Virus record (IMG/VR): IMGVR_UViG_2909262264_000005
DNA from: a virus
Lineage: Duplodnaviria > Heunggongvirae > Uroviricota > Caudoviricetes
Reading direction: 5' to 3' (one strand)
Length of the DNA stretch: 64,000 nucleotides
Every line of letters begins with the position of its first letter. Within the stretch, counting starts at the first letter, position 1. Shown in pieces: positions 4,997-63,571 of the stretch. The notes below the pieces were generated by a model. The model ran no database searches and was not told the DNA's origin. It was given only the letters and a program-made list of their open reading frames with translations. The position numbers and the translations under genes were made by a program.

Positions 4997-5054
4997 CCCA
5001 CAAAAAAGCCCGCCTGAACCGGCGGGCTGTCATAACACTGTGTTACCTGGCTAA

Positions 5055-5654
5055 TCAGAATTTATAACCGACACCCACGATGAAACCGTCAGTGCGCCAG
5101 TCGCCACTGCCGGAACCTTCATAAGCGACATCAACGGCCACGGATTCGGTCGGGTTAAACTGCACGCCAGCCCCCCACGCCAGAGACGTGTTGCTGTGGC
5201 GACCGTCATCACTTCCGATCAGCACATCGTGCGTTTTCCCCGTATTGTCGGTCACCTGCAGATAATCCCCGGAGAAAGTCGACACACGGCTGTAAGCCAC
5301 ACCCGCCATCGCATACGCGCTGAACCATTCATTCACGCGCACAGACGGCCCCGCCATCACGCTGAACCAGCGGTTACGCACGGAATCTTCATGCCAGCGG
5401 GTATCGCTGTAATGCGTTTTTTGCTCATCTTCAGCGTTGGCATAACTGAATGACGTAATCAGCCCCAGCGTGTCCGTAAACTCATAACGGTATTTCACGT
5501 TAATCCCGTTCAGATTATCGCTGCCGGGAGCGTTCGTACGGGCATGAAGATACCCTGCGCTCAGTGTGGCCTGCTGCTCAGACGCCCATGCAGGCGCACC
5601 GGATACGGCCAGACAGATGGCTGCGGACAAAATGGCTGCACAAACTTTACGCAT
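5055..5654 (-). CDS. lom: Lom-like outer-membrane protein (Ail/Lom family)
   Basis: 199 aa with signal peptide, beta-barrel-like composition, C-terminal ...[10 protein letters not shown]; located between J and tail fibre as in lambda. Confidence 0.8.
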
Positions 5655-5721
5655 AATTACCTCTCGCTTTTCTGCAATAAAAAAGGCGCCATTTCTGGCG
5701 CCCGTATATGGGTTATAAAAT

Positions 5722-8700
5722 TCAGCTGATACTGATGCCTGCGGTGGCTTTCTTCATCACCACAACCAGCAAATCGCTGATACTTGCTGTGGGATACCAG
5801 TCATTTACCAGCCACGCTGACACCGAAAACTCCAGCGTCATGTGACCGTGACCAGCCGGCATATCAATAACACCACTGTAAATCAGCGTATTATCCAGCG
5901 CGGTACGGTTATAAATTTCAGCGCCGTTTTTCCGTACGATCAGACGGCATGAGGAGTAAATATCAGTATGCTCTTTCTCATGTTTAGCGCCACTGAATGC
6001 CACCGCCGGAATAACAATCTGCCGGTCAAACGGCTGATCGTCATAAACCCTGACGGTAATGGTTCCTGATGGCCACCGCTCCGGTGCACGGGAGTCCCGG
6101 GGGAAAGCTTTGCCCACTGTTTTAACGAGATCGCCTTCAATCTGGTTCGCGGACAGTTTTCCCAGAACCCGACAGTTCTCGTTAATCGTGACGTTGTTGA
6201 GCGTCCCGGAGTTCGCATTCACGTTACCGCTGATATCGGCATTTTTCGCCGTCAGCCGTCCGTCCGGTGTCAGGGAAAATGCCGGAGGATTACCGCCGCT
6301 GGTAATGGTCGGAGCCGTCAGGCGTTTCAGGAACACGTCGTTCATGAATATCTGATCGCCCTGACCAACAAACATTGGTCTTGTGTTGCCATTAGACGGA
6401 TCAATAAACGCGATACGGTTAGCGGCAACCAGGAACTGGCTCAGTTTGCCTTCCTCCGTATCCTCCATGCTGAGGCCAATACCCGCGACATAATGTTTGC
6501 CGTCTTTGGTCTGCTCAATTTTGACGCCCCACATGGCATTCCACTTATCACTGGCGTCCTTCCACTCTTTCGAAAACTCCTCCAGTTTGCTGGCGTTATC
6601 CTCCGTCAGCTCGACTTTTTCCAGCAGCTCCTTGCCGAGATGGGATTCGGTTATCTGGCCTTTGAAAAAATCCAGGTAACCTTCCGCATCATCGCTCGCC
6701 CGACCAACAGCCTCCACGAATGCCGATTTGCCAACGGTGTTCACACTGCGGATATAAAAGTAATAATCATGGCCCGGTTTGATATTGATACTGGCGGCTA
6801 TCCAGTACAGCGCCGTACCAAGATAGCGGGCTGTGGTTTCAACCTGCCTGATATCGGTAATCCGCTTTTCCGAGAACCAGAACTCAAACTGTACCGTCGG
6901 ATCATAAACCGCAAGATGCGGCGTGGCGGTGATCTGAAAATAGCCCGGCGTCAGCTCAATCCGCGACGGCGCTGCCGGTGCGGCAATCCGGAACGATACC
7001 GACGCCGGATCGCCCTGCTGTCCCCACGCATTTACCGCCCGGACTGTCAGCCTGTAGTTTCCCAGCGCCAGCTGCCTGAAGCGGTATGTGGTTTCCGTCG
7101 TCCGGGCCGTGCTGACCAGCCGCTCACTGCCGTCATCCGCTGCCACGGCCAGGCGAAGCAGGAAGCTCACGCCCTTCACCACCTTCGGCGTGTCCCAGCG
7201 CGCCAGCACCTGATATTCCCCGCTGTCTGCGGTGACTTCTGCGGTCAGGTGCTGCACTGCTGGCGGCGTGACACCATTCACCGTGCCGCTCTGGTCGCCG
7301 TCAAAGTGCGCCCCGTTATCCACGATGGCCTCTTTTTCCGGTACATGCTGCACGGCGGTGATGGCATACGTGCCGTCATCGTTCTCACGGATACTCACGC
7401 AGCGGAACAGGCGCTGGCGCAGCGTCGGCAGCTTCAGCCCCCACACGCTGTATTCAGCAACACCGTCAGGAACACGGCTCACTTTCACCTTCACGCCGTC
7501 GGTGACGGACTGGACCTCCACGCTGACCGGATTGCCATTTCCGTCAACCAGGCTTATCAGCGTGGTACCGGAGGATGGCAGCGTGATTTCACGGTCGAGC
7601 GTCAGCGTCCGGGTCTGGCTGTTCACCGCCAGCACGCGACCACCGGTGCTGATACCGGCATAGTCATCATCGCAGATTTCAATGACATCGCCCGGTACAT
7701 GGCGAAGCCCTTCAGCACCCACGCTGAAATCCACGGTCTGCGTCTCCAGCAGTTCCGTTTTAATCAGCCACAGCCCGGCGCGGTGTGCCTGCCCCCGGCT
7801 GGTACAGCCAAAGGCATCCATCTTCGTGACATTACGACCGTAACGGGCAATGGCCTGCGTATCTTCAACAAGCTCTGTCGCCGTCTCCCAGCCGTTGTTC
7901 GGGTCAATCCAGTTCACCTCAACGGCATTATGGCGGTCCTTCAGGGCGCTGAAGCTGTAGCGGAACGGCGCGCCATCATCCGGCATCACCACATTACTGC
8001 GGTTATAGGTCCACACCTTATCCGACGGTCGGTCCTGCACGAACGTCAGCGTCTGCCCGTTCCATACCGGCATACAGCGCATCGCCGAGCAGAAATCACT
8101 GAGCACATCCCACGCCTTGCGCTGTGTGGTCAGGTACGCATTACAGGTGATGCGCGGCTCCGTGCCGCCAAAGCCGTCCGGCACTGACTGGTCGCAGTAC
8201 TGGCCGATGACATACAGCGCCCATTTGTCCACATCCGCCGCACCAAGACGTTTCCCCATGCCGTAGCGCGGGTGGGTCAGCATATCCCACAGACACCAGG
8301 CCATGTTGTTGCTGTATGCTGGTTTTAACGTTCCGTCCCAGATACCGCTGTATTGTCGCGTCTGCGGGTTATAGTTCGACGGCACCTGCAGAATGCGCCC
8401 GCGAAGATGATAATTACGACTCACCTGCTGGCTGCCGAACTGCTCCGAGTCCACCTGTACGCCGACCAGTGCAGTGTTCGGGTAGCACTGTTTCACATCG
8501 ATGATTTCGGTGTATGACGACCAGAGCGTTTTGTTCTGCAGCTGGTCTGTGGTGCTGTCCGGCGTCATCCTGCGCATCCGTATATTGAACGGGCGCGGCG
8601 GCAGGTTACCCACCACCACCGAGGCCAGATACTGCGAGGTGGTTTTGCCCTTAATGGTGATGTCTTTTTCCGTCACCCAGCCACCATTACGCTGGATCTG

Positions 8701-9117
8701 AACCAGCAGGCGGACTTCCGACGGATTCCGGTCCCCCTTTGAGGTGGTTTCCACCAGTGCCTGCACACCGAAGGTAAAGCGCAGACGGTCGATGTTTGCA
8801 GACGTGATGGTCCGGGTAATCGGCGTGTCGTACTTCACTTCCGTACCCAGCACCGTCTCGGAGCCGGAGGATTCAAATCCCTCCGGCGGTGTCTGCTCCT
8901 GCTCACCGGCCCGGAAAACCACCGTGACACCGGAGATATTGGTATTCCCCTCACTGTCCAGCACCGGCGTACTGTTCAGCAGCACGCTTTTTAATCCGTC
9001 CACCGGACCTTCAACCGGCCCTTCACTGATGGCGTCTATCACGCTCAGCATCTGGGATGATTTCAGGTTGTCCTTCGCTTCGCGCGGGGTATGCCCCTTA
9101 CTGCTGCCTTTACCCAT
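5722..9117 (-). CDS. Host specificity protein J (central tail fibre)
   Basis: 1131 aa; position and length as lambda gpJ; paralogue at 54314-57796. Confidence 0.9.
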
Positions 9118-9177
9118 TCGTCATGCTCCATAAACGATAAAACCGCCCGGAGGCGGTTTCACATAAAACGTTTTTCA

Positions 9178-9819
9178 TCAGCGACCAATCACCACAACCT
9201 GACCACCATCCCCTTCGTCTGCCGTGCTGATCTCCTGAGAGACCACCCGCGACCCCACGCGCATTTCACCGTACAGAACGGGCAGAACATTGCCCTGGGC
9301 AACCATATTATCCAGTGAAGAAAAATAGGTGTTCTGTTTGCCGTTATCCGTTGTCTGTGTGCGGGGGGTTTTGGGTTTAGGAGCCAGCATCTGTGCAACA
9401 CCGCCAAGCGTCATACTGGCACCGAGAGAAAAAAGCAGATTACTCGCCATTATTCCTACCCCCGGCATCCATATAGCAACCGCCATAACAGCAGCTCCCA
9501 GCACTGCCTGAAACACACCGCCACTTTTGGCTCCTGCCAGACGCGGCACGATGTGGATCACTGCTCCATTCGCCAGCGGTTCATTAAGACGGGCTGATAA
9601 TTCGTTTTCGCCTGCATCACGCCCGGCAATGCGCACCTGATACCAGCCGTCGCTCAGTTTCTGACGAAACGCCGGAAACTGCATAGCCAGCGCCCGGATG
9701 GCTTCGGCTCCCGTTTTCACACGCAGATCGATGCGGCGACCAAATCGTTGTAAATCCCCGTAAAGGCAGATGCGTGCCATGCCCGGTGACGCCAGAGGGA
9801 GTGTGTGCGTCGCTGCCAT
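9178..9819 (-). CDS. Tail assembly protein I
   Basis: MAATHTLPLASPGMARICLYGDLQRFGRRIDLRVKTGAEA... recognised as lambda gpI-like. Confidence 0.8.
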   Translation of the reverse strand: MAATHTLPLASPGMARICLYGDLQRFGRRIDLRVKTGAEAIRALAMQFPAFRQKLSDGWYQVRIAGRDAGENELSARLNEPLANGAVIHIVPRLAGAKSGGVFQAVLGAAVMAVAIWMPGVGIMASNLLFSLGASMTLGGVAQMLAPKPKTPRTQTTDNGKQNTYFSSLDNMVAQGNVLPVLYGEMRVGSRVVSQEISTADEGDGGQVVVIGR

Positions 9820-10460
9820 TTGTCGGTATACCTCTCTCGTTTGCTCAGTTGTTCAGGAATATGGTGCAGCAGCTCGCCGTCACCACAGTAAATGGCGGCA
9901 TGATTCGGCACCGATGAACCAAAACAGCACAACAGCACATCGCCCGGTTGTGCTGATGACAACGGCACCTGATACAGCCCCGTGGCCTCCAGATTATCCA
10001 GATAGAGATTCTGACCGTTACGCCACCAGTCATCCCCGCGATGAAAATCCGGCATCTCAATCCCCGCCAGATGATAAGCATCCCGGAACAGCGTGTAACA
10101 GTCCGTCACCCCGTGCTCAAAGCGTCGCCCGGTAAGATGCGGCACACTGCGAAATTTATGAATCTCACCCCGGCAGACCAGCCACCAAGGCAAATCGCTC
10201 TGCACCTGCAGCCGCCGGTCGGCCTCACTCAGCCAGGGCAGACCACCGGGGTGGCTGTGGACCAGCGCCACAATCTCACCCTGCATCTCTGCCCACAGCC
10301 AGTCCTCCGGCGACATCCGGAAATACGCCTCCGGCTCACCGGAGATATTCACGCAGGGAAAATATCTTTCCCCTTCCGGCGTTCTCACCACGAAGCCGCA
10401 CGACTCCGCTGGCGCACATCGCCGGGCGTGCGCCAGAATCGCTGATTCTGTCTGTGTCAT
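9717..10460 (-). CDS. Tail assembly protein K (NlpC/P60 and MPN/JAB-like domains)
   Basis: MTQTESAILAHARRCAPAESCGFVV... with HSHP motif; 3' end overlaps the gpI-like gene. Confidence 0.8.
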   Translation of the reverse strand: MTQTESAILAHARRCAPAESCGFVVRTPEGERYFPCVNISGEPEAYFRMSPEDWLWAEMQGEIVALVHSHPGGLPWLSEADRRLQVQSDLPWWLVCRGEIHKFRSVPHLTGRRFEHGVTDCYTLFRDAYHLAGIEMPDFHRGDDWWRNGQNLYLDNLEATGLYQVPLSSAQPGDVLLCCFGSSVPNHAAIYCGDGELLHHIPEQLSKRERYTDKWQRRTHSLWRHRAWHASAFTGIYNDLVAASICV

Positions 10461-10465
10461 GGGAT

Positions 10466-11164
10466 TTACTGCGAAAGTTTGTTAATGGAAAGGAAGCCGC
10501 CAAAGTTGCCGACGTTATTGCGAAACTTACAGCCACTCAGGCATTTGCTGCATTTATCCTTCGTGATATCGGACGTCGGCTGATCATATTCATCCGCGAC
10601 AGCCGGACCGTGATAACCGCACTCATCACCGCGATAGGTCCAGGTGCAGGTGTTGGCCAGCATGATGCGCCCCGGAAAAACAGCGCCATCCGTTTCCGTC
10701 GGCGTGGACAGTACAAAAGAAGCACTGACCGCGCTCAGTTCGCTGCACTGCTCGATGCGCCAGCGGCTGATCACCTCCTGCTCCGGGTCGGCGTCACTGT
10801 TCCCGTTGACGAAGTTCACCGCATCCAGAAAACGGGCGTAAACCTTACGCCGGACCACCGTTCCGCCGACCAGACTCTGCAGATCTTCCGCCATCCCGGT
10901 GACCATGCCGTGCAGATTAGAGACTTTCAGCGTTGGCCTTGCACTGGCTCCTTTGCCGTTCATCTCAAATCCACTTCCCTGAATGGGATAGGCCTGATAC
11001 TGCCGCCCCTGCCAGGTGACTGGTTCACCTTTTTCGTTCTGCTCATTACAGAAGAAATAACGATCTCCGCCGACCTCTGTCAGATCAATTTCCCAGAGCA
11101 CGACCAGCGCGGATTGCTCCGTTTTAGTGCACTCATTGAGTGTTTCCTGCTGTATATCCTGCAT
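10466..11164 (-). CDS. Minor tail protein L
   Basis: 232 aa, same length as lambda gpL; Cys-rich C-terminus. Confidence 0.8.
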   Translation of the reverse strand: MQDIQQETLNECTKTEQSALVVLWEIDLTEVGGDRYFFCNEQNEKGEPVTWQGRQYQAYPIQGSGFEMNGKGASARPTLKVSNLHGMVTGMAEDLQSLVGGTVVRRKVYARFLDAVNFVNGNSDADPEQEVISRWRIEQCSELSAVSASFVLSTPTETDGAVFPGRIMLANTCTWTYRGDECGYHGPAVADEYDQPTSDITKDKCSKCLSGCKFRNNVGNFGGFLSINKLSQ

Positions 11165-11520
11165 CAGTGAGTGACCTCTTCAAAGGTACAGTTAAAATCG
11201 GTATACATAGCATTATCCGAAATGCTCCACTCCCTGCAGACAACCCGGACAGTCCTGTTGTGTTTTGGCGGACGCCACAAAAAAGCACGAATCCCGGCAT
11301 GACGGGATAAAAAACTGTCCAGCGCGGCACGGGAATATTCATCTGTGACACGAAATACCGGTTTAAACGTTTTCAGATCCGCATTCAGACCACCAGCCCG
11401 TCGCTGTTCATATCCGTCACCAAACTTTACCGTAATAACTGATGGCTTTCGTGTCGTCTCCATCCCCTCACGGGGGATCCAGTTAAAAACTTCAGGCTCA
11501 GGCACTGTATAATCCTCCAT
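11164..11520 (-). CDS. Minor tail protein M
   Basis: Conserved FGDGYEQRRAGGLN motif; start set at the MEDYTV ATG (listed ORF extends to 11550). Confidence 0.65.
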   Translation of the reverse strand: MEDYTVPEPEVFNWIPREGMETTRKPSVITVKFGDGYEQRRAGGLNADLKTFKPVFRVTDEYSRAALDSFLSRHAGIRAFLWRPPKHNRTVRVVCREWSISDNAMYTDFNCTFEEVTH

Positions 11521-24160: not shown

Positions 24161-24316
24161 TCAGCTCTGCAGACACTGTCGAACACCGTCGACAATTTCA
24201 CAGACCTGAGAAGCTGTATCGAAAAGCTGGCGCGCCTTATCCAGGCTGACGCATCCCACCAATAAAAAAGGCACCAGTATCGCTACCAGTGCCCATTTCG
24301 CTGCCGTTCGCGGCAT
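24161..24316 (-). CDS. Small lipoprotein downstream of endolysin (possible spanin component)
   Basis: Internal start MPRTAAKWALVAILVPFLLVGC has a lipobox (LVGC); overlaps endolysin 3' end. Confidence 0.45.
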   Translation of the reverse strand: MPRTAAKWALVAILVPFLLVGCVSLDKARQLFDTASQVCEIVDGVRQCLQS

Positions 24317-24357
24317 TCTATGTGTCCAGTGTTTTCGACTCATAACTCGCCCGGCTA

Positions 24358-24741
24358 TCAGCGTTTCAATTGGAAGTGCGGCCCGTCCTTCAGCGTTTTC
24401 CAGTCCCCGCCCCATTCGATAGCGATCCCCAGCTCTGCGGCAGCCTGCTTAAATGCCTGCGCTATTTTCTCGTACAGAGGCCAGTCCCATGACACCTGGC
24501 TGCCAATGTAGGCCACAACATCCACCGCATCACCTGTCAGGTGGCGGCTGTTCATGGTCTGGCTTTTCCCTTCCGCGACCAGCTGTTTCTGGCGATACTT
24601 ACTGCGCAGGCCTTCCGTAATACCGAAATCAACTTCCGTCAGCTCAAGGGCACGGCGAACAACAGCAACCAGTTGTGGTTTGACGCCCTCCAGATTTTTT
24701 TCACTGCGACGGCTGAATCTGAATTTACCCGGCATATTCAC
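24358..24741 (-). CDS. Endolysin, peptidase M15 family
   Basis: SRHLTGDAVDV and DGPHFQ zinc-binding motifs of VanY/M15 peptidases. Confidence 0.75.
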   Translation of the reverse strand: MNMPGKFRFSRRSEKNLEGVKPQLVAVVRRALELTEVDFGITEGLRSKYRQKQLVAEGKSQTMNSRHLTGDAVDVVAYIGSQVSWDWPLYEKIAQAFKQAAAELGIAIEWGGDWKTLKDGPHFQLKR

Positions 24742-25013
24742 CTCAACAATGGAAAGATTTTTGTGACGTTCCCGCGTGCGCGTATCACCAGCACGCAGAA
24801 CAGCAGATTAAAAAACACTTCCAGCCAGCCCGTTGCTAACGGGCGACCACACAGATAGCTGAGGGGCGCAAAGGCATACAGCAACATCAGCAGCCAGGCC
24901 AGCCATGACATCAGCGGTTTATGCCTGGAATCACGGCGACGATAAAAAAAGAGCGTCAGCACGATAACCGTGCATAACGCCACATTCAGCAATCCGGGAA
25001 GGTTACTTAACAT
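24738..25013 (-). CDS. Membrane protein of lysis cassette (holin/antiholin candidate)
   Basis: 91 aa with predicted transmembrane helices; overlaps flanking lysis genes. Confidence 0.45.
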   Translation of the reverse strand: MLSNLPGLLNVALCTVIVLTLFFYRRRDSRHKPLMSWLAWLLMLLYAFAPLSYLCGRPLATGWLEVFFNLLFCVLVIRARGNVTKIFPLLR

Positions 25014-25395
25014 TGCCGCCTCCTCCGCCCCGCAGGCGCGAGAACAGGCCGGACACCAGTGATGCGATATCCTGCTGGTGGATGAACGACAGAATCTTCA
25101 CCGACACCACCGCCACCAGCACCGCACACAGTGCATCCGCAGATGTACCGTCATAACCTGTTTTTGATGCAATCCAGGCTGACAGTACACGCGCCCCCAG
25201 TACACCAACAATGAACGACACCAGAAAATGTGCCGCCACACGCCAGGCTGAAATCTTCTGCGGCATCGTTGCCACAAACAACGCCCCGGCGAACGCACCA
25301 AACACAATCCCGAAATCCGTTCCGGTAAACAGCCCGAATACCGTCGCCCCGCCGAGCGCCGCAGCCGTGCCGGAACCGGATAAGGGTTCAGACAT
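25003..25395 (-). CDS. Putative holin
   Basis: Gly/Ala-rich transmembrane segments; start set at the MSEPLSGSG ATG; first gene of lysis cluster. Confidence 0.5.
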   Translation of the reverse strand: MSEPLSGSGTAAALGGATVFGLFTGTDFGIVFGAFAGALFVATMPQKISAWRVAAHFLVSFIVGVLGARVLSAWIASKTGYDGTSADALCAVLVAVVSVKILSFIHQQDIASLVSGLFSRLRGGGGGNVK

Positions 25396-25631
25396 ACTTT
25401 TTCTCCTGTAAATAAAAAAGGGCCACCAGCGGCCCATAAAAACACCCCATCAAAGGCACCCGCAGATGCCTTTTGTGTGGTGTTATTCAGATTTACGCAG
25501 TAAAGGCCGGAGCACGACCAGCGCCATCGCCACCAGCACACCATCTGCCAGCACCGACATCAGCCGTCCGGTGAAATCCACCGCCACTACCAGAAACAGC
25601 AGGATAGCAGCCAGCACAAGGCGCGCACTTT

Positions 25632-26057
25632 TCACAGGTACTGCTCCAGCGGCAACTGCAGCGCCTGAGCAATTTTCTTGAGCTGTGCTTCTTCATCCGG
25701 ACCAATGCCATCCTGGTCAGCGATATCCAGACACAGGCACAGCACATTAACTGCATCATCAGTACCGGCAACATCAGCCAGCTGACGAAGAGCTTCGGCA
25801 TTGGCAGAACGCGGCGACGCTTCATAACGGGCGCGGATATTTGCACTCATTTGTGCAATCTCACCGGAGAACGGCGCAAAAGCAGGAAGTGCTGCAATGG
25901 TTTTCTCCAGCACCGCGATTTCTTTCGCATCACAGGTGCCGTCGGCGAATGCGATGGAATACGCACCCCAGACGGTCGCCTCCACTGCGTCGCGGTTCTC
26001 CATTTTCTTTACTTCAGTAATGGCCTTGCGGGTTTTCTTTTTGAAAATACCAAACAT
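25632..26057 (-). CDS. TerB-like (tellurite-resistance TerB domain) protein
   Basis: 141 aa with paired acidic motifs ADGTCDAKEIAVLE and IADQDGIGPDEEAQL characteristic of the TerB fold. Confidence 0.6.
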   Translation of the reverse strand: MFGIFKKKTRKAITEVKKMENRDAVEATVWGAYSIAFADGTCDAKEIAVLEKTIAALPAFAPFSGEIAQMSANIRARYEASPRSANAEALRQLADVAGTDDAVNVLCLCLDIADQDGIGPDEEAQLKKIAQALQLPLEQYL

Positions 26058-26740
26058 CGTGACTTTTCCTTTTAGTGGGTGAGCCTGCGCCCGGGGGTGA
26101 CCAGCCCACAGAGAAAGTCACACTGACCATCCCGTAAGCTCACCCCTGAAAGGCTCTGTGGTTTTTGATGTGCGCCGGGCGTGGCGCAAAGAAATGAAAT
26201 AAGACTTACCTGAAATTAAGGTTAATCTGAGGATTTAAACCATTTTTAAAGCTTAGTAATATCAACTCGTCTCCTGAAGGAGACAGATACTTATGATTCT
26301 TCATGGACTTTGTCCCGCGGCGTTAATCCGACGGCCGCGCTTTTTTTGCGCCATATTCATCGCTAACTTACATGACATGGCATTGCCACACGGGCATTAT
26401 CAGTGTCCGTGTTTCTTTTTTTAGGATTCAGAATAAAAAAACCGCCCGGTGGAGGCGGTAAAGGATGTATATCCAGGTTTTGCTTAGTATATGATTAATC
26501 TCAATGTCATTTTTAGCGATGTTTACAACATCGGGATGGCACATCACCGACCCTGTCAGGAAATACAAAATCTCCACCGACAATGCGCCATTCCGATGTT
26601 ATAAAAAAATCAGCACTGATACCGTAATAAATAACATTCATTACAGGACGGGATGTAGTAAGGAGTCAGGGTAAAACAAAAACATCCCACACATATAATG
26701 TGTCAGTGCCTAACACAACCTAGCATCTATTGTCCTCTGC

Positions 26741-26815
<75 letters not shown>

Positions 26816-27837
26816 ATACTGTACTGGCTTCCGGAATCACACGAATTACCAGGAAAGCCAGCACTGGTCCTTCAGACGATAGTAACGCCCCTGTGAACAC
26901 AAAAATAACCGTCTTCCGGACCAGTCAGAATACTAACGACAGTTTTTCAGACATCAAAAATATATTTGGTGTTCAGTTTTAAATATGTGTATACATATGT
27001 ATCAGAAATATACAACTTATATCATCACTGAATTAAAAATCTTTCGTTATTTCTCTGACCGTCTGATTAAAACGTTCCTCTTCCAGTTCCACGCCAATCG
27101 CCCTGCGTCCCAGCGACAGTGCCGCTTTTATTGTCGACCCCGACCCCATAAAAAAATCAGCAACCAAATCTCCCGGATGGCTGCTGGCGGTAATTATCTG
27201 ACGCAACATATCCGCCGGTTTCTCACAGGGATGTTTGCCGGGGTAATACTGCACAGGCCTGTGCGTCCAGACATCCGTATACGGAACAGCTGCCGATACG
27301 GAAAAATAACGCCGCAGGGATTTGTACTCTTCCAGCAGGCTGGCGTATTGACGGTTCAGTTCACTGTATGTGCTGACCAGCTGGTGGTGTGGCTTTTCCA
27401 GTTCCCCGCGCTGATGCTTTTCTGCTGCAACACGCGCAAACAATGCCTGCAGTTTTCTGTAATCAGCTTCGTTCGGTAACTGCCACTGACTGGCACCAAA
27501 CCAGTGCGAAGCCATATTTTTCTTTCCGGTGGCTTCCGCTATCTGTTTTGACGTTATTCCCAGTGATTCACGCGCATCACGAAAGTAAGAAATCAGCGGG
27601 GCCATGACGTGCTGTTTTAGCTCGCGCCCCTTTGCTGCAAAATGGCATCTAAATCGATCACGGTTTGGCATTCGAATCGATCATGATTTGGCATCCATCT
27701 CCGATCACAGTTTGGCATCACAATCGATCACGATTTGGCATGCTTCCGATCATTGATTGGCATCCTGCCAGTCACTCCGGGAATTAACTCTTTTCACCAC
27801 AGTCTTCATTGCCGTGTTTAAACCAGTGGAGACGGCA

Positions 27838-29403
27838 ATGTCCAGAAAGAGAAAATCCAGGAGCACTATGGAAACCTGTTTTAAGATCCTTCAGCTCAAG
27901 TTCGACCAGAAGCTGACTAACCGTTGTATCGGACTGACGTTACACATCAGCGCCTCAACCGTTTTTGAGGTTCTTGCACGCTTCAAAGCCTCTTCTCTGT
28001 CATGGCCATTACCTGCTGATATATCCCATGACACGCTGGAGAAACTCATTTACCCGCCCAAAGACACCTCTGCGTCAGAGCTTGTTATGCCTGACATGCT
28101 GTACTTCGATACGGAAATGAGAAAACCGGGCGTGACGCGCCAGCTGTTGTGGATGGAATACAAGGCACAGGCGAGTGACAAAGCGATGGGATACTCGCAC
28201 TTCTGCCGTTGCTACCGGGAGTGGAAAAAAACGCGACGCCTCTCCATGCGCCAGGAGCATCGTGCCGGCGAAAAGCTCTTTATCGACTTCTGCGGTCCTA
28301 CGGTTCCTGTTATTAATCCGGACACCGGAGAGATACGCCGCGTGGCAATCTTCGTGGCCGTGATGGGGGCATCCAACTATACCTACGTTGAAGCGTGCGA
28401 AGGTCAGGACATGATGTCATGGTTAAATGCCCACAGCCGTTGCCTGACCTTCCTGGGCGGCGTGCCGAAGCTGCTCATCCCCGATAATCTCAAAAGTGCA
28501 GTCAAAAAAGCCGATCGCTATGAGCCTGTCATCAACGACAGTTATCAGGCGCTGGCTGAGCACTATGGCACGGTTATTATCCCGGCCCGCCCGCGCAAAC
28601 CTAAAGATAAACCAAAAGCAGAAAACGGCGTCCTCATCGTCGAACGATGGCTTCTTGCCCGCATCCGTAATGAAACCTTCCACACGCTCAGGGCGCTGAA
28701 TGCGCGCCTTCGGGAGTTACTGACGGACATGAATAACCGGCCAATGAAGGGGTACGGCAATCAAACCCGTGCAGAACGCTTCCGCATGCTGGATGCGCCA
28801 GCACTCTCTCCGCTGCCTCTGGCACCTTATGAATACACGGAATACAAAGCCGTGAAGGTTGGCCCTGACTATCACGTTGAATATGCCCGTCACTGGTACT
28901 CCGTTCCACACGAACTGGTCGGTCAGCGTCTGTCACTGAAGGCGGGGCAGTCTGTGGTACAACTCTGGCACAAGGGGCAGTGTGTGGCGCAACATCCGCG
29001 CAGCACACATGAATATAAACACACAACCAATCCGCTTCACATGCCAGAGCGCCACCGGCAGCACGGGACATGGACACCGGAACGCCTGATCGAGCAGGGG
29101 AAACGTACGGGCCCGTCCACAGGCCGGGTGGTTGAATCCATGCTGAAGGCAAAACCCCATCCGGAACTGGCTTATCGTGCAGTTCTGGGGCTGCTGGCAC
29201 TTCAGAAAAAATACGGCCCGGAACGACTGGAAAAGGCCTGTTACGTTGCCCTGCACTATAACGCCCCTGACAGACGCTTTATCGACAATCTGCTGCGTCA
29301 CCATCGGGAGAACCTGGAGCTTCCATTATCCCGCCAGGGCGAACAACATCCGACATATGCTTCAGAGCATGAAAACCTGCGTGGTCCGGGCTACTACCAC
29401 TGA
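27838..29403 (+). CDS. istA: IS21-family transposase IstA
   Basis: N-terminal HTH then DDE-type core; GGAG RBS before ATG 27838 (listed ORF starts at 27757). Confidence 0.85.
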   Translation: MSRKRKSRSTMETCFKILQLKFDQKLTNRCIGLTLHISASTVFEVLARFKASSLSWPLPADISHDTLEKLIYPPKDTSASELVMPDMLYFDTEMRKPGVTRQLLWMEYKAQASDKAMGYSHFCRCYREWKKTRRLSMRQEHRAGEKLFIDFCGPTVPVINPDTGEIRRVAIFVAVMGASNYTYVEACEGQDMMSWLNAHSRCLTFLGGVPKLLIPDNLKSAVKKADRYEPVINDSYQALAEHYGTVIIPARPRKPKDKPKAENGVLIVERWLLARIRNETFHTLRALNARLRELLTDMNNRPMKGYGNQTRAERFRMLDAPALSPLPLAPYEYTEYKAVKVGPDYHVEYARHWYSVPHELVGQRLSLKAGQSVVQLWHKGQCVAQHPRSTHEYKHTTNPLHMPERHRQHGTWTPERLIEQGKRTGPSTGRVVESMLKAKPHPELAYRAVLGLLALQKKYGPERLEKACYVALHYNAPDRRFIDNLLRHHRENLELPLSRQGEQHPTYASEHENLRGPGYYH

Positions 29404-29419
29404 CAGAAGGAACAACAGT

Positions 29420-30175
29420 ATGAGTGATAACCTGTTAAACAAACTGACCCAACTGAAACTCCCGGCGATGGCCGGGAGCCTGATACGGCAGCGGGAAACG
29501 CCTCAGACCTACGACGAACTGTCGTTCGAGGAAAGGCTGACGCTGCTGGTTGATGACGAGCTTCTGAGCAGGGAAAACAGCCGTGTGGCACGGTTGAGAA
29601 AAAATGCCGGCCTGAAATACCAGGCAACACCGGAAGGGCTGCGCTATCCGGCCTCAAGAGGTCTGCGGGCTGAACAGATGAGAGAACTGCTGAACGGTCA
29701 CTACATAACCCACAGGAAAAACCTGCTGATAACCGGTCCGACAGGATGTGGCAAGAGCTGGATAGCCAATGCGCTGGGCGAACAGGCATGTCGACAGAAA
29801 CACAGCGTCCGGTACTGTAGAACCGGGCGATTACTGGAACAGCTGGCTCAGGGACGTGTTGATGGCAGCTGGCTGAAATATCTGAAACAGTTGCAAAAAA
29901 TACAGGTTCTAATCCTGGACGATCTGGGGCTGGAACAGTTAAGTAACGCCCAGTGTAATGACCTTCTGGAGCTCATAGAGGATCGTTACGGACAAAGCAG
30001 CACGATAGTGGTAAGCCAGTTCCCGGTAGATAAATGGCATGGTCTGATGGAAAACCCAACAACAGCAGATGCCATCCTGGACAGACTGGTACATAACTCA
30101 CACAGAGTGGTCCTTCAGGGAGAGTCCCTGAGGAAAAATCCCCCGACAGTGGAAAGCAGCGAAAAAACGAGTTAA
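29420..30175 (+). CDS. istB: IS21-family helper ATPase IstB
   Basis: Walker A GPTGCGKS and Walker B LILDDLG; start at the MSDNLLNKL ATG. Confidence 0.9.
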   Translation: MSDNLLNKLTQLKLPAMAGSLIRQRETPQTYDELSFEERLTLLVDDELLSRENSRVARLRKNAGLKYQATPEGLRYPASRGLRAEQMRELLNGHYITHRKNLLITGPTGCGKSWIANALGEQACRQKHSVRYCRTGRLLEQLAQGRVDGSWLKYLKQLQKIQVLILDDLGLEQLSNAQCNDLLELIEDRYGQSSTIVVSQFPVDKWHGLMENPTTADAILDRLVHNSHRVVLQGESLRKNPPTVESSEKTS

Positions 30176-30873
30176 AAAGCGATAGAAAAAGTTAAGTTCC
30201 CGGTTGATCGAATGTATGCGAATCGCTGATCGGACTTCGATGCCAATCCGTGATCGAATAGAGCGGAATACGCATTTGCCGCATAGCCGTCATTTTTGGG
30301 CTGGTATGGCCCCTGATAATGTTCGGCAAACAGAATGCGCTCTGTTGCCGGGAAATACGCCCGCAGGCTTTCCTTGTTGCATCCGTTCCAGCGTCCGGAC
30401 GGCTTCGCCCAGATAATGTGATTCAGCACATTAAAGCGTTCACGCATCATGATTTCGATATCAGATGCCAGGCGATGACCACAGAACAGGTAAAGACTTC
30501 CGGCAGGCTTCAGTACCCGCCAGAATTGCGCCAGACACTGGTCCAGCCATTTCAGGTAATCATCATCGCCCTTCCACTGGTTATCCCAGCCCTCGGGCTT
30601 CACTTTAAAGTATGGCGGGTCTGTGACTATCAGATCGACAGAATTTTCCGGTAAGGTCTGGATAAATTCCAGGCAATCAGCGTTGATTAACTCACAACTG
30701 GATATTTTTACAGTATTGGCCATAGATCAATAAGCACTTCTCTGATAGGCTCATACCGCTTTTGCGCAAAGCAGATGGGCCTGAGGTTTGCTTGTGACCC
30801 CAACGCATGAGCAGATGGCTGGCAGGTGCCGCTAACACCCACCAGCCGCCCATTACCACAAATTAAAAAGCCT

Positions 30874-31522: not shown

Positions 31523-32620
31523 ATGAAAAAATTAACAGTGGCAATCTCTGCTGTAGCTGCGTCAGTATTAATGGCGATGTCTGCTCAAGCAGCAGAGATT
31601 TATAACAAAGACAGCAACAAACTGGATCTGTACGGAAAAGTTAATGCCGAGCACTACTTCTCCTCTAACGATAAACACGATGGTGACAAAACTTATGCTC
31701 GTCTGGGCTTCAAAGGCGAAACCCAAATCAATGATCAACTGACTGGTTTCGGTCAGTGGGAATATGAATTCAAAGGCAACCGTGCTGAATCTCAAGGTTC
31801 TTCCGGGGATAAAACTCGCCTTGCATTCGCTGGCCTGAAATTCGGTGACTACGGCTCCATCGATTATGGCCGTAACTACGGTGTAGCATACGACATCGGT
31901 GCGTGGACTAACGTTTTGCCAGAATTCGGTGGTGATACTTGGACTCAAACCGACGTATTCATGACTCAGCGTGCAACTGGTGTTGCAACTTACCGTAATA
32001 ACGACTTCTTCGGTCTGGTTGATGGTCTGAACTTTGCTGCTCAGTACCAAGGCAAAAACGATCGTAGCGATCTCGATAACTATACCGAAGGTAACGGTGA
32101 TGGCTTCGGTTTCTCTGCTACCTATGAATACGAAGGATTCGGTATTGGTGCAACTTATGCGAAATCTGACCGTACCGACACTCAAGTTAATCTAGGGAAA
32201 GTTCTTCCTGGAGTATTTGCTTCCGGTAAAAATGCAGAAGTTTGGGCCGCAGGTCTGAAATATGACGCTAACAACATTTACCTGGCCACTACCTATTCTG
32301 AAACCCAGAATATGACTGTATTTGCTGATCACTTCGTTGCTAATAAAGCCCAAAACTTCGAAGCTGTTGCACAATATCAGTTCGATTTCGGTCTGCGTCC
32401 GTCCGTGGCTTACCTGCAATCTAAAGGTAAAGATCTCGGAGTATGGGGCGATCAAGACTTAGTTAAATATGTTGATGTAGGCGCAACCTATTACTTCAAC
32501 AAAAATATGTCTACTTTCGTTGATTACAAAATCAACCTGCTTGACAAAAATGATTTCACCAGAGGTCTTGATATAAACACCGACGATATTGTTGCTGTCG
32601 GTATGGTTTACCAGTTCTAA
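31523..32620 (+). CDS. nmpC: Prophage-encoded general porin, OmpC family (NmpC/Lc type)
   Basis: 365 aa with signal peptide; recognised as near-identical to DLP12 NmpC / phage PA-2 Lc; C-terminal ...[11 protein letters not shown]...VYQF; opposite in orientation to the late operon. Confidence 0.85.
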
Positions 32621-32809: not shown

Positions 32810-33193
32810 TCAATAACATCTAACAACTTCAAGATCCATCTCGAGACGAACATCCAGTGCCATCAACATTCCGTCGACTATTCCTTCAGCCTTCTGAAGT
32901 TTTTTTCCTATATATCCATCAGAACAATGATGCTTACGGGCCAGTGCCATAAACGTCATACCAGCCACATAATAATCTACCAGCAAATCATGCAAATCAC
33001 TGTTGTTCTTTTTCAAACGAGCCATGCATCCGCAAATGATCATTGCGTCATCATCACTACATTGCGGTCGCGATTTAACCTTTGAAGGAATAAGTCCCTT
33101 GAATCCGGCTGCAATCGATGACCAGGTGACATCCTCATGATTATTTGCCACCCATGCCCCCCAACGCTCAAGAACCATCTGAATATCACGCAT
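32810..33193 (-). CDS. Late-gene antiterminator Q (QuuD/YbcQ-like)
   Basis: 127 aa [31 protein letters not shown]... recognised as DLP12 Q homologue; sits between replication genes and late region. Confidence 0.8.
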
Positions 33194-43944: not shown

Positions 43945-44154
43945 GTGGGGCTGGATTGCGTACCTATATCAACCTACTGCCGCAACGCAGGAGAAACGGT
44001 TGATGCCGTTAACAAACGGATACAAAGAGGAATATGGAAAGAAGGGGTACATGTATTAAAAGTCGACGGAGTTAAAGAACGTTGGGTCGACTTAATGGAG
44101 ATTACAAAATGGGCAAGAAAGAACAAGGATCATTATCTCTCCCTAGAGGAGTAA
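43945..44154 (+). CDS. xis: Excisionase (Xis-like)
   Basis: 69-aa basic protein with GTG start after GAGGTG; overlaps integrase start. Confidence 0.6.
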   Translation: MGLDCVPISTYCRNAGETVDAVNKRIQRGIWKEGVHVLKVDGVKERWVDLMEITKWARKNKDHYLSLEE

Positions 44155-45281
44155 CTATTCGGCAGCATAAAACTGGTAGCACTCTGGTTATCACTTTTAC
44201 ATATAAAGGGGTTCTGTGTCGGGAGCCCCTCTCCAGAATGGAAGTAAACGCGCGCGGTGTGAAGTACGCAGAACGTCTGCTGGGAGAAATAAAAAATCAG
44301 ATTATCGATGGTACCTTCGAATATGCAAAATACTTCCCCAACTCCCAAAAGCTGGAGTTGTTCGGGGGAGTGAAAAAAAACAAAAATATAAAATCTTATC
44401 TGGATGAATACCTGATTATCTGCCAGAACCGTAACCTGTCACCATCGACAATTAGAGGTTATGAAAAATGCTTGTCGGCGCTGTCAGCATTGCATAAATT
44501 TCATGTATCAGAACTGACACCTGCTGTACTAAAAAACTGGATCGCCAGCAGAAAAACAAAACTGAAAACGATCCGCAATAATCTTTCGTTTCTGCGCAGC
44601 GCCATAGATGAAGCGGTGACCGATGGTTTGTTAACAATAAATCCTGTCACGCTAGTCAGCGCCAGCCGGTATCACGTATTGGACAACACACCAGGCAGTG
44701 GTGATTACGAGGTCGATCCCTTTACACCAGCGGAGACGGCAGCAATCTATGACGCCTGTCATTACCCGGAATGGCGAAATCTGTTTCGCTTTGCCTTTAA
44801 TACCGGACTGCGTAGCTCAGAATTGTGCGCGTTGCGCTGGACGGATATAGACTTCATCGGCAACACCGCGCATGTTCAAACTGCAAGCGTAGTCGGGGTA
44901 ATCAAAAGCACCAAAACAAAAGCCGGCACCCGCAAAGTGCAACTGAACAGCGAAGCGCTGGCGGCTCTTCAGGCACAAAAGCCCTACACGGCGCTAAAGA
45001 GCGACTTCATATTCAGCGATCCGAAAACTCGCGCTCCTTGGGCAAACGCAGATGCGATCCGAAAAAAAGCCTGGGTACCAACCCTTAAAAAAGCTGGTGT
45101 ACGCTATCGCAATCCGTACCAGACACGCCACACGTTCGCCACACGGCACATTAGCCAGGGCGTTAACCTGTTCTGGCTTGCTGGTCAGATGGGACATAAA
45201 GGACCGGAAATGCTGTTCAGACATTACGGCTCTTACCTTGCAGAATACGATGGAAAAACGGCGATTTCTGCAGCCCCGTAA
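44109..45281 (+). CDS. int: Tyrosine integrase
   Basis: C-terminal catalytic residues in ...RHTFATRHISQGVNLFWLAGQMGHKGPEMLFRHYGSY; sits beside the att core at 45414-45440. Confidence 0.9.
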   Translation: MGKKEQGSLSLPRGVTIRQHKTGSTLVITFTYKGVLCREPLSRMEVNARGVKYAERLLGEIKNQIIDGTFEYAKYFPNSQKLELFGGVKKNKNIKSYLDEYLIICQNRNLSPSTIRGYEKCLSALSALHKFHVSELTPAVLKNWIASRKTKLKTIRNNLSFLRSAIDEAVTDGLLTINPVTLVSASRYHVLDNTPGSGDYEVDPFTPAETAAIYDACHYPEWRNLFRFAFNTGLRSSELCALRWTDIDFIGNTAHVQTASVVGVIKSTKTKAGTRKVQLNSEALAALQAQKPYTALKSDFIFSDPKTRAPWANADAIRKKAWVPTLKKAGVRYRNPYQTRHTFATRHISQGVNLFWLAGQMGHKGPEMLFRHYGSYLAEYDGKTAISAAP

Positions 45282-45413: not shown

Positions 45414-45440
45414 CGGGTTCAACTCCCGCCAGCTCCACCA
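45414..45440 (+). repeat. 27-bp att core (junction between prophage A and prophage B)
   Basis: Exact copy of ssrA 3' end; flanking sequence resembles the phage arm next to ssrA. Confidence 0.75.
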
Positions 45441-45598: not shown

Positions 45599-45674
45599 CC
45601 CTTAAGTTCCTAGCCGCTTATCTATAACTATGGAAAAATGTTAACCCTGACTGTATGTTAACAAAGGGATGTAT

Positions 45675-46883
45675 ATGTCGGTTTTTCATAACTGGCTGCT
45701 TGATATCGCAAGCGGGAATTACTTTATCTACATCAAACGCCTTTCTGCAAACGACACAGGCGCAACAGGTGGCCATCAGGTCGGACTTTATATCCCCTCA
45801 AATATCGTTGAAAAGCTTTTTCCATCTATCAATCATACTCGCGAACTGAACCCTTCAGTCTTCCTTACTGCGCATGTATCATCCCATGATTGCCCTGATA
45901 CCCAAGCACGCGCAATTTATTACAACAACCGTTATTTTGGTAAGACCCGAAACGAAAAAAGAATTACGCGCTGGGGGAGAGGAAGTCCATTACAGAACCC
46001 TGAAAATACAGGAGCCCTCACAATTCTTGCTTTCAGGTTAAACGAACAGAACACTGACTGTTCCGAGGTAGATATATGGGTCTGCGTCAATCCCGATGAA
46101 GAGGATATCATCGAGTCTGCTATTGGCGAAATCATACCTGGAACCCTAATTTCCGGCCCTGCCGGACAAATTTTGGGCGGATTGTCTCTTCAGCAAACTC
46201 CAGTAAATCATAAATATGTTATTCCTGAAGACTGGAAGAAGCGTTTTCCTTCTGGAAACGAAATTATTCAATATGCTGCTGGCCATTATGCTAAAAACTC
46301 CAAGGATCCAGATGAGCAACTGATTGACCGTCGGCGTGTCGAGTATGATATTTTTCTACTCGTCGAGGAATTACATGTTATTGATATTATTAAGAAAGGA
46401 TTCGATTCTGTAGATGAGTTTATTGCATTAGCCAACTCTGTCAGTAATCGACGTAAATCAAGGGCAGGCAAATCACTTGAACTTCACCTAGAGAAGCTTT
46501 TTATCGAGCACGGACTACGGCATTTCTCCACTCAGGCAGTTACTGAAGGTAATAAAAAACCAGATTTCCTGTTTCCTTCAGCAGAGGCATATCATAACGT
46601 TGAATTTCCTGTAGAAAACTTACGTATGCTGGCAGTAAAGACCACCTGCAAAGATCGCTGGCGTCAGATACTGAATGAAGCAGATAAAATCCATCAGGTA
46701 CATTTATTTACACTGCAAGAAGGTGTTTCTTCAGCACAATACCGAGAAATGAAAGATGCGGGTGTCAGACTCGTTGTACCATCAACTTTACATAAAAAAT
46801 ACCCAGAAGCAGTTAGAGAAGAATTAATAACGCTCGGAGCATTCATTACTGAGCTGATAGAGCTTTACGCTGAACTATCATAG
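45675..46883 (+). CDS. Type IIE restriction endonuclease, EcoRII-like (predicted CCWGG specificity)
   Basis: 402 aa; N-terminus MSVFHNWLL...YIKRLSANDTGATGGHQVGLYIP recalled as EcoRII effector domain; C-terminal PD-(D/E)xK motif (KPDFLF ... VENLRMLAVKTTCK). Confidence 0.8.
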   Translation: MSVFHNWLLDIASGNYFIYIKRLSANDTGATGGHQVGLYIPSNIVEKLFPSINHTRELNPSVFLTAHVSSHDCPDTQARAIYYNNRYFGKTRNEKRITRWGRGSPLQNPENTGALTILAFRLNEQNTDCSEVDIWVCVNPDEEDIIESAIGEIIPGTLISGPAGQILGGLSLQQTPVNHKYVIPEDWKKRFPSGNEIIQYAAGHYAKNSKDPDEQLIDRRRVEYDIFLLVEELHVIDIIKKGFDSVDEFIALANSVSNRRKSRAGKSLELHLEKLFIEHGLRHFSTQAVTEGNKKPDFLFPSAEAYHNVEFPVENLRMLAVKTTCKDRWRQILNEADKIHQVHLFTLQEGVSSAQYREMKDAGVRLVVPSTLHKKYPEAVREELITLGAFITELIELYAELS

Positions 46884-46888
46884 GCTGA

Positions 46889-46911
46889 CTCCCGGCTTAA
46901 AAGGCCGGGAG
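46889..46911. terminator. Bidirectional hairpin between convergent R and M genes
   Basis: ctcccggc-ttaaaag-gccgggag. Confidence 0.45.
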
Positions 46912-46917
46912 ATGTTC

Positions 46918-48351
46918 TCAAGGCTGCCCAGTCTTACCAGCATCAGCAGAAACAGCTTTGAGGATATAGGGTTCCAGAAGTCTGGCAACAGCTTCAAATA
47001 CTGGCACCACAACTGAGTTACCGAACTGCCGATATGACTGAGTATCTGAAACCGGAATACGGAATGGTTTCCCTCCAGGTTTTTCAAATCCCATAAGGCG
47101 TGCGCACTCTCGGGGAGTCAGCCTGCGTGGTCGACGAGCCTGATTACTCTCATTCATAAAGTCAGCCTCTCCCGTTGCCATATCCCAACCACGATCAATA
47201 AGAATTTCTGATCCGTCTTTGTGATATCTGGCAGAAAGTGTGCGTGCAATGCTTTCCTTATTCTCAGGATTGACCAACCCAAAGCCAAAACCATTCCCCT
47301 TGGCTGCATGCTTTTTGGCGTAGTTATAAAGGTACTCCCATAGTTTTGGCGTAAGTATATATTTACTGTCGACTACAGGCTCCAGCAATTCACCAAATGA
47401 TGGGCGGTGTTCCGGATAAAAACGACTGATATCACGCAAGGTAAACCCCTTGTGAATATTCAGATCTCGTCTAAATCCGACCAGAACAATACGTTCACGA
47501 TGCTGAGGCAAAAAATGCTTCCCATCGATAATCTTTGGATCGTTTTTTCCCATTTCTGCAGCATCGGCAACTTCGTAGCCCAGCTCGTCAAGGGTCTCCA
47601 TAATGACTTTGAAAGTTTTACCCTTATCATGGCTCTTCAGATTTTTGACATTTTCCAGCACAAAAATTGCCGGTTTTTTTGCTCGTATAATACGTGCCAC
47701 GTCAAAAAAAAGTGTTCCTTGTGCTTCACATTCAAAACCATGCGCACGACCAAGTGAGTTTTTCTTACTAACACCAGCAAGGCTAAATGGCTGGCACGGG
47801 AACCCCGCAAGAAGCACATCATGATCCGGCACATGCTCATCAATATATGCATAAGCATCCGTTTCCAATACATCGGTTTTATCACTCAGCGTGACTTCCC
47901 GAATATCGAGATTGAATTTATGCACCTGTTCATCGTTAAACCAGTTGGCCTTGTATGTACGCACAGCATCTTTATTCCATTCACTGGTAAAAACACACTG
48001 GCCTCCAATGGCCTCAAAACCTTTCCGTATCCCTCCAATTCCAGCAAATAAGTCAATGAAGCGGAAAGCATATTCCGGATGGTTTGCAGGTGGTTCTGGT
48101 AGCATCTTACGCAGAAGAGACTCTTCTACTGAAGTCAACGATTTTGGTAAACACTTGCCATTAATCCAGCGGTTAATGGTTTCACGGCTCCACTCATTTT
48201 TTCCGACTTTTCTCAGTAATTCAGCCACATACTTCTGATCATAGATTTCCAGCACTTTCTCGATAAGCTTTTTATCATTTTCCTGTCGCAGCTTTTCTTC
48301 CGCCTCGGCTTCCTTCAGCAGATGCTGTGCCAACACTTCAAATTCAGACAT
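46918..48351 (-). CDS. DNA cytosine-5 methyltransferase, Dcm / M.EcoRII-like
   Basis: 477 aa from ATG 48351 (GGAGG RBS); motif [14 protein letters not shown] catalytic motif ([11 protein letters not shown]), ENV (FVLENVKNL); recalled as highly similar to E. coli Dcm. Confidence 0.9.
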
Positions 48352-48712
48352 AATTCCTCCAAGGGGTCTAATGGGTGAAACTTTATCACTCATTCAACCC
48401 AGAAGGAAATGTTTTATCTGGATATTTAAACAGTGACTACAACGTAATCTAGCACTGGTGATGCTTTGTTAGGCATAGAGAATCATTCTATATACGACTA
48501 ATGACAGAAAAACAGCAGACAAGTAGTTTGTTCATAAATTAACGCATACTATGTGTCTACGGTTTTCGAGACCGGTCCAATCATCAAACGAAACATAAAA
48601 TTAGCTCACATTATGAGGAAAAGTATCTTTTTTGTACTATGTAAATTCAAAGGCTTAGCCTCATTTCTCCGATGGTTTTCTCAACACTACTGGTTGTGAG
48701 CCCTTGCAATGA

Positions 48713-53589: not shown

Positions 53590-53647
53590 CCCACAAAAAA
53601 GCCCGCCTGAACCGGCGGGCTGTCATAACACTGTGTTACCTGGCTAA

Positions 53648-54247: not shown

Positions 54248-54313
54248 AATTACCTCTCGCTTTTCTGCAATAAAAAAGGCGTCATTTCTGACGCCCGTTC
54301 TGGGTTATAAAAT

Positions 54314-57796: not shown

Positions 57797-57856
57797 TCGT
57801 CATGCTCCATAAACGACAAAACCGCCCGGAGGCGGTTTCACATAAAACATTTTGCA

Positions 57857-59145: not shown

Positions 59146-59150
59146 GGGAT

Positions 59151-59852: not shown

Positions 59853-59858
59853 GGCCTC

Positions 59859-63563: not shown

Positions 63564-63571
63564 TTCCCGCG

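Follow-up and report, generated by a model that had tools for sequence, protein, structure and literature searches.

Two overlapping reading frames on the minus strand of the 64,000-nucleotide stretch of virus DNA analysed here (the window; IMG/VR record IMGVR_UViG_2909262264_000005) are, judging from both their identity and their architecture, almost certainly the tciA-tciB accessory cassette known from phage P1. They lie in the late region of a prophage, together with a conserved leader, two intrinsic terminators and the genes listed in Table 1. This pair of genes is already catalogued, since it is named in P1, typed in Pfam and PHROGs (where both genes fall in the category "moron, auxiliary metabolic gene and host takeover") and annotated in RefSeq, in which identical genes carry the labels "tellurite resistance TerB family protein" and "DUF3927 family protein"; PGAP annotates tciA and tciB in hundreds of E. 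coli genomes. The original prediction, which had picked out the locus, overlooked this identity with a named P1 pair.

Table 1. Features of the tciAB locus and its neighbourhood, in window coordinates
Feature	Position	Strand	Evidence or remarks
Antiterminator Q	32810..33193	minus	Pfam Phage_antitermQ, E 4.1e-54
tRNA-Gly(tcc)	26741..26815	minus	ARAGORN; Rfam tRNA, 65.6 bits; upstream neighbour, same direction of transcription
Intrinsic terminator, downstream of tRNA-Gly and upstream of the leader	26431..26459	minus	ACCGCCTCCACCGGGCGGT then TTTTTTATTC (terminator scan)
GC-rich 5' leader of tciA, about 135 nt	26058..26193	minus	Ends in AAGGA ribosome-binding site
tciA (141-aa soluble acidic TerB-family protein)	25632..26057	minus	pI 4.8; Pfam and PHROG matches
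tciB (50-aa hydrophobic DUF3927 protein)	25483..25635	minus	GTG start overlaps tciA stop (GTGA)
Hairpin and intrinsic terminator	25410..25473	minus	Hairpin 25473..25451; stem 25435..25420 and T-run
Holin (Phage_holin_8)	25003..25395	minus	Pfam, PHROG
Holin (Phage_holin_3_7)	24738..25013	minus	Pfam, PHROG
M15 endolysin	24358..24741	minus	Pfam, PHROG

A 141-residue protein with paired acidic motifs had been predicted here, and the ORF is indeed present at 25632..26057, where it begins with ATG, 8 nt after an AAGGA Shine-Dalgarno sequence (ORF listing and direct reading). The two motifs, IAFADGTCDAKEIAVLE and LDIADQDGIGPDEEAQL, are two copies of an ADG...E pattern which forms the conserved core of an alignment of 41 homologues: A36, D39, G40 and E46, together with A113, D116, G117 and E122, are each either invariant or conserved in 90% or more of the sequences. 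The protein is 85.1% identical to P1 TciA (NC_005856) over residues 1-141 and 100% identical to the product of a gene of phage vB_Apl-pPE4 (both by tblastn), and the tciA gene of E. coli C311 is identical at the nucleotide level. Codon differences number 13 synonymous and 0 non-synonymous relative to pPE4, and 53 synonymous and 21 non-synonymous relative to P1; this codon-level comparison indicates that tciA is under strong purifying selection.

The assignment of this protein to the TerB family, also made originally, stands on several lines of evidence. Pfam TerB (PF05099) matches at 30.5 bits against a gathering cut-off of 24.4 (E 4.9e-7), the aligned part being residues 11-57 only, and PHROG 632 matches over the full length (E 1.3e-64). 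With the single sequence, nothing better than weak and in our judgement spurious matches to polynucleotide phosphorylase (E 0.017-0.023) came up in the PDB, so that a profile was required. The profile, made of 41 homologues drawn from two subfamilies, matched TerB of K. pneumoniae (2JXU) with an E value of 6.5e-14, residues 12-137 aligning with 18-144; a profile search had been suggested as a check of the fold, and this match to TerB is full-length. The same profile also matches 2OU3 (E 2.7e-4). The AlphaFold2 model has six helices (pLDDT 88.9, pTM 0.84), and its best PDB neighbour by Foldseek is 2h5n (probability 1.0, TM 0.53-0.59, E 0.022), deposited as a protein of unknown function, which we take to be TerB-like; 2JXU is absent among the best 50 Foldseek PDB matches listed for the model. 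In NCBIfam there is only a sub-threshold match to DjlA (residues 21-106, E 0.022, 14 bits against a cut-off of 162). We conclude that TciA is a soluble, acidic, six-helix protein with the TerB fold. Its basic N-terminus, MFGIFKKK, is conserved (F2, G3 and K7), and residues 1-8 are disordered in the model.

The second gene had been proposed as a possible GTG-initiated ORF of about 50 codons at 25482-25634. It is real, with a GGAG sequence 8 nt upstream of its GTG start, but the proposed coordinates were one base off, the ORF lying at 25483..25635. The proposal that its product is a membrane protein agrees with our results: TciB is very hydrophobic (GRAVY 1.40; pI 10.8) and matches both Pfam DUF3927 (E 2.4e-14) and PHROG 1470, "TciB-like" (E 2.5e-24). 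Its hydropathy profile has two maxima with DFTGR between them, whereas the AlphaFold2 model is one continuous helix from residue 2 to residue 48 (pLDDT 92.5), so that the protein may form either a hairpin or one long helix. Two aspartates, D20 and D31, lie inside the hydrophobic sequence and are invariant across 26 close homologues, and identity to P1 TciB is 50%. Taken together, the sequence data show that neither tciA nor tciB is a chance ORF.

Unrelated phages, temperate as well as virulent, have kept the two genes together as a unit. A TciB-like ORF directly adjoins the TerB gene, or overlaps it, in P1, P7 and the lambdoid phages JLK-2012 and PPyecE_EH1910, in the virulent N4-like phages Pollock and FSL SP-058, and in Pantoea phage LIET2 and the Erwinia jumbo phage Caitlin; it is found at the TerB stop codon in 62 of 63 IMG/VR loci with an intact TerB gene. 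Such a neighbour is absent at the TerB gene of Pseudomonas phages AF and PMBT3 and of Vibrio phage BUCT194. Within the unit the alleles of TciA and TciB are freely shuffled relative to each other: between the window and P1, identity is 85% for TciA and 50% for TciB, and between P1 and P7 it is 31% for TciA and 83% for TciB. This shuffling means that no allele-specific co-adaptation backs a direct contact between the two proteins. At the DNA level, tciA of the window is P1-like, while the leader and part of tciB resemble O157-type lambdoid prophages. We also encountered proteins in which TerB and DUF3927 are fused (P0051, P0245 and P0306), but their junction sequences make them look like artefacts of frameshift or read-through, and we left them out as Rosetta-stone evidence. 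An alignment of TciA with TciB based on such fusions was dropped, as the TciB rows were only 16-22% identical to the fusion, which suggests misalignment; the ADG of TciB was possibly aligned onto the ADG of TciA.

As to distribution, 1660 of 5426 complete E. coli genomes contain homologous DNA (168 of them with at least 80% query coverage), as do 95 phage records and 669 plasmid records, 655 of the latter non-mobilisable. The plasmids among the matches listed are mostly of about 100-130 kb, which is consistent with P1-like phage-plasmids. A search of 50%-identity clusters (1.8 billion representative proteins) returned 170 matches at E <= 0.001.

The prophage that carries the pair is phiP27-like, about 44 kb long and inserted in ssrA. 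It is bounded by a 27-bp direct repeat of the tmRNA 3' end (CGGGTTCAACTCCCGCCAGCTCCACCA) at 1034-1060 and 45414-45440, the second copy lying just beyond the integrase gene (44082-45281). On the minus strand the genes run from Q through a methylase, tRNA-Gly, tciAB, lysis, HNH, terminase and head to tail genes, an order from Q to tail which is the same in phiP27 and in E. coli C311; the lysis cassette of two holins and an endolysin is likewise arranged as in phiP27 and pPE4. The position between tRNA and holin that had been given for the pair is thus correct, with the tRNA gene (26741..26815) upstream and the holin beginning downstream. This first holin probably starts at the ATG at 25395 rather than at 25437, because its Pfam match begins at residue 15 and a ribosome-binding site precedes 25395. 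A small minus-strand ORF overlapping the 3' end of the endolysin gene (24161-24415; lipobox-like LLVGC; PHROG 7528, of unknown function) probably contributes a spanin component to the lysis cassette.

In phiP27 the slot that holds tciAB here carries stx2e. Homology between phiP27 and the window extends from the endolysin to 25577, ending inside tciB, and at 6074-6260 of phiP27 (AJ298298), directly downstream of the stxB gene of stx2e, there is a frameshifted remnant of the 3' part of tciB (compared with window 25483-25577). This remnant at the junction suggests a replacement in phiP27, in which the stx2e cassette took the place of tciA and the 5' part of tciB. Other E. coli prophages are arranged as Q or methylase, tRNAs of ileZ/argN/argO type, leader, TerB and DUF3927, followed by nanS-p or holins. 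The pair is accessory cargo in the slot between Q and lysis, where related phages hold Shiga toxin.

Several further features of this region can be recorded here. tRNA genes precede the TerB gene in P1, P7, JLK-2012, E. coli prophages, Erwinia phage Caitlin and this window, and they also lie downstream of the cassette in P1 and P7; these recurrent neighbours may point to an accessory slot in common or to a functional connection. An IS21-family element in 27033-30723 (plus strand; istA at about 27757-29403, istB within 29177-30175) splits the phage DNA methylase into an N-terminal part (30172-30723) and a C-terminal part (27033-27671). It sits between Q and the late genes and may disturb late transcription in this prophage. 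A full-length Gram-negative porin gene (31523-32620, plus strand; Pfam Porin_1, E 2.9e-154) lies between Q and the methylase, and an EcoRII-type restriction endonuclease gene is found within 45669-48393, just outside the prophage. Finally, the ORFs in 49601-64000 repeat the size pattern of those in 1578-11500, and short exact repeats are common to both regions, so that 49601-64000 may be the tail region of a second lambdoid prophage in tandem.

Terminators flank the cassette on both sides. The one that separates the tciB stop codon from the ribosome-binding site of the holin, GGGCCGCTGGTGGCCC then TTTTTTATTT in the terminator scan, is very strong (fold energy of 25410..25473, -35.4 kcal/mol; z -2.9). 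In related prophages a terminator lies directly 5' of the leader. A crude sigma-70 consensus scan of the coding strand from the tRNA to tciA gave no promoter match, and the candidates that we could pick out by eye upstream of tciA were poor and not kept between leader alleles. Two other elements lie in the same interval. One is a 46-bp terminator-like element (26303-26348), about 90% identical to a chromosomal site in almost every E. coli, which lies between mtfA and yodB, about 290 bp past a tRNA-Ser gene. The other is a hairpin of about 90 nt (26519-26608, minus strand) in the AT-rich spacer that separates tRNA-Gly from the leader, which scores 37 bits, far below the cut-off, with a miRNA-precursor model.

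Since no sigma-70 promoter was detected and terminators flank the cassette, we infer that transcription reaches it by read-through from a Q-antiterminated transcript, and tciAB is thus probably expressed late in the lytic cycle. Read-through by Q-modified polymerase is established for cargo genes of this slot. Terminators on either side, however, equally characterise a classical moron that is expressed autonomously. One could thus imagine that the pair serves in lysogenic conversion or in prophage-borne defence, being transcribed in the lysogen from its own promoter and acting against other phages or pore-forming colicins as a minimal TerB-based defence with TciB as the membrane effector. We think that this is rather unlikely, although several points speak for it: like a classical moron, the cassette has an intrinsic terminator on either side, it occupies the stx slot, and both genes belong to the moron category of PHROGs. 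Moreover, TerB proteins occur in validated defence systems, of which Dionysus combines DinB with membrane proteins (bioRxiv 10.1101/2025.09.30.679545), Shango and Bunzi being cited alongside it, and the ter cluster has been linked in the literature to phage inhibition and colicin resistance. On the other hand, the coding strand lacks a sigma-70 promoter match, and no model of PADLOC-DB v2, a library without Dionysus (2025), matches TciA or TciB at E <= 1. N4-like and jumbo phages also carry tciAB although, being strictly virulent, they form no lysogen that it could protect, and the P1 pair sits in a repressor-controlled lytic operon. In P1 the two genes are on the ban strand, downstream of the C1-operator-controlled Pban promoters; transcripts of tciA, tciB and tciC have been reported at 10-20 min in a P1vir infection transcriptome, and CRISPRi knock-down of each of these three genes was scored as non-essential (PMC10695390).

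The original prediction hesitated between a moron and a regulator of lysis. The first description is a reasonable one, whereas the second, according to which TciB, or TciA and TciB together, would modulate holin triggering in the manner of an antiholin, seems improbable to us. It is true that the cassette lies immediately upstream of two holin genes here, in pPE4 and in C311, that a lysis gene is the first recognised downstream gene in 24 of 41 informative lambdoid loci, and that TciB is small and of membrane type by its hydropathy. This linkage to lysis genes is nevertheless confined to lambdoid and phiP27-like phages. The pair is part of the C1-controlled ban operon in P1 and P7 and lies among early or middle genes in N4-like phages; LIET2 and Caitlin have no annotated lysis gene within 1.5 kb of it; and in O157-type lambdoid prophages nanS-p intervenes before the holin. 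A role in lysis regulation is thus unsupported, given that the pair is found away from lysis genes in P1, N4-like, Pantoea and jumbo phages. In the window itself a strong terminator stands between tciB and the holin, and when TciB was aligned against both holins of this prophage there was no similarity to either, and no alignment. phiP27 lyses its host without tciA and with only a broken tciB. The accompanying view that the pair is not a standard lysis component agrees with its place in a cargo slot that has the Q/tRNA region on one side and the lysis genes on the other, and neither TciA nor TciB matches a lysis family in PHROG or Pfam.

The reading that we favour, with a probability of roughly 55%, is that this is a P1-type tciAB cargo cassette, expressed late and encoding a TerB module tethered to the membrane. 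In the literature searched, no experimentally tested function turned up for TciA, TciB, DUF3927 or phage TerB, and the P1 label "tellurite/colicin/cell division" rests on homology only. TerB is reported to interact with the membrane protein TerC (PMC11003894, citing Turkovicova 2016), and TerB proteins have been described as amphitropic, with a proposed role in membrane surveillance in defence systems (bioRxiv 10.1101/2025.09.30.679545). This partnership of TerB with TerC, and the occurrence of TerB beside membrane proteins in defence systems, is why we read TciB as the membrane partner of the TerB domain. In such a scheme, TciB would insert in the inner membrane and, together with the basic N-terminus of TciA, would hold the TerB domain at the cytoplasmic face, so that tciAB might be regarded as a reduced counterpart of the ter system's TerB-TerC core. 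As expression is inferred to depend on the Q-antiterminated late transcript, the products would appear during lytic growth rather than in the lysogen, and the presence of tciAB in virulent N4-like and jumbo phages is an argument for a primary role in lytic infection. The module might then monitor or protect the membrane of the infected cell until programmed lysis, against insults such as pore-forming colicins or superinfecting phages, while being dispensable for phage growth and standing outside the lysis machinery. This protective or exclusion function is a tentative suggestion.

Two other functions have to be weighed against a membrane-tethered cargo module. The pair might be a counter-defence or host-takeover factor in lytic growth, which would, for example, neutralise a membrane-acting abortive-infection effector or alter cation homeostasis. 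That it occurs in virulent phages and within early or middle operons, and that acidic residues are conserved in both proteins (ADG...E in TciA, D20 and D31 in TciB), would suit such a role, but one screen of phage accessory genes makes no mention of TerB or TciA, and we hold this explanation to be highly improbable. That tciAB could be a genuine determinant of tellurite resistance, as database names such as "tellurite resistance" would have it, is hardly credible. The genes terZ, A, C, D and E are absent from the flanks, where the neighbours are tRNA-Gly, the methylase, two holins and the endolysin, and these missing ter genes make a stand-alone tellurite role unlikely; according to a phage study, terB alone is not expected to confer resistance (PMC8421299).

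The most unusual feature of the locus is the conserved leader upstream of tciA. Its sequence hardly varies between prophages even though their TciA proteins share only 41-43% identity, and it is present in 95 of the 120 IMG/VR loci that share a 14-mer, the TerB start lying 102-105 nt past this motif. The leader did not match the P1 locus at the DNA level, and it has no credible match to any family in an Rfam scan of 25380..26830. We tested the leader RNA in three ways, by an RNAalifold consensus and by two hand-built models, one of them with a pseudoknot. In an alignment of 43 sequences the proposed helices with long-range pairing are 95-98% paired, and one segment of the leader can pair with two alternative partners; covariation consists essentially of one compensatory pair, C-G in 26 sequences changing to U-A in 17, with a few allele-level changes. 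The leader could be a cis-regulatory RNA or a mere recombination linker. If the former, one may go further and imagine an RNA-regulated module in which the leader is joined to a TerB sensor and to a 50-residue membrane effector with two intramembrane aspartates, and which would exclude phages or colicins or defeat membrane-acting abortive-infection systems. We consider this bolder scheme unlikely, but if it were true, such a self-contained module would give DUF3927 its first function and explain the recurrence of TerB in virulent phages.

To come back to the late-expressed cargo cassette that we prefer, its importance can be seen in two ways. As a match in a genome scan tciAB matters little, because the genes were already named and annotated. 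It is, however, very widespread in temperate and virulent phages, so that simple genetics could reveal the function of an accessory module common among phages, and it marks a cargo slot for Shiga toxin.

Among known systems the closest is the tciA-tciB(-tciC) group of P1, with which the window shares a TciA that is 85% identical over 141 residues, a TciB homologue with an overlapping start, and adjacent tRNA genes. It differs in that its TciB is only 50% identical, the corresponding DNA matching O157-type lambdoid alleles, and in that tciC, a third gene of 35 codons in P1, is absent (the best tblastn match has an E value of 0.13 and lies elsewhere in the window); no tciC is annotated after tciB in the other records examined outside P1 and P7. 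The context is also different, since the window cassette has a conserved leader of lambdoid type and lies in a Q-dependent late region beside lysis genes, whereas that of P1 is in a C1-controlled early operon.

The TerB protein of terZABCDE (2JXU; IncHI2 plasmid R478 and O157 ter islands) resembles TciA in its domain, its size and its paired ADG...E motifs, and it too has a membrane partner, which for TciA is a predicted one. Unlike this system, tciAB is borne by phages and lacks TerC, TerD, TerE, TerZ and TerA, and the partner is a 50-residue DUF3927 peptide instead of the multi-pass TerC. A similar parallel can be drawn with DinB of Dionysus (with SngA of Shango and BnzA of Bunzi cited in the same preprint), a stand-alone TerB-like protein beside membrane proteins for which membrane surveillance has been proposed; there, however, the partners are an MAEBL/TM protein and a pore-forming toxin with four transmembrane segments. 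More generally, tciAB differs from the anti-phage systems that contain TerB in being carried by phages, virulent ones included, and in having no PADLOC match. In terms of position, the nearest counterparts are stx2e of phiP27 and the stx and nanS-p genes of Stx phages, which likewise occupy the interval that runs from the Q, methylase and tRNA genes to the holin, although their function is unrelated and tciAB is no toxin or known virulence factor. Lastly, DjlA, to which residues 21-106 of TciA show a weak match (E 0.022), has a TerB-like domain that is held at the inner membrane by a transmembrane segment; TciA has no J domain, and its score is far below the cut-off, but the comparison illustrates the arrangement that we have in mind, with the difference that in tciAB the anchor would be a separate polypeptide.
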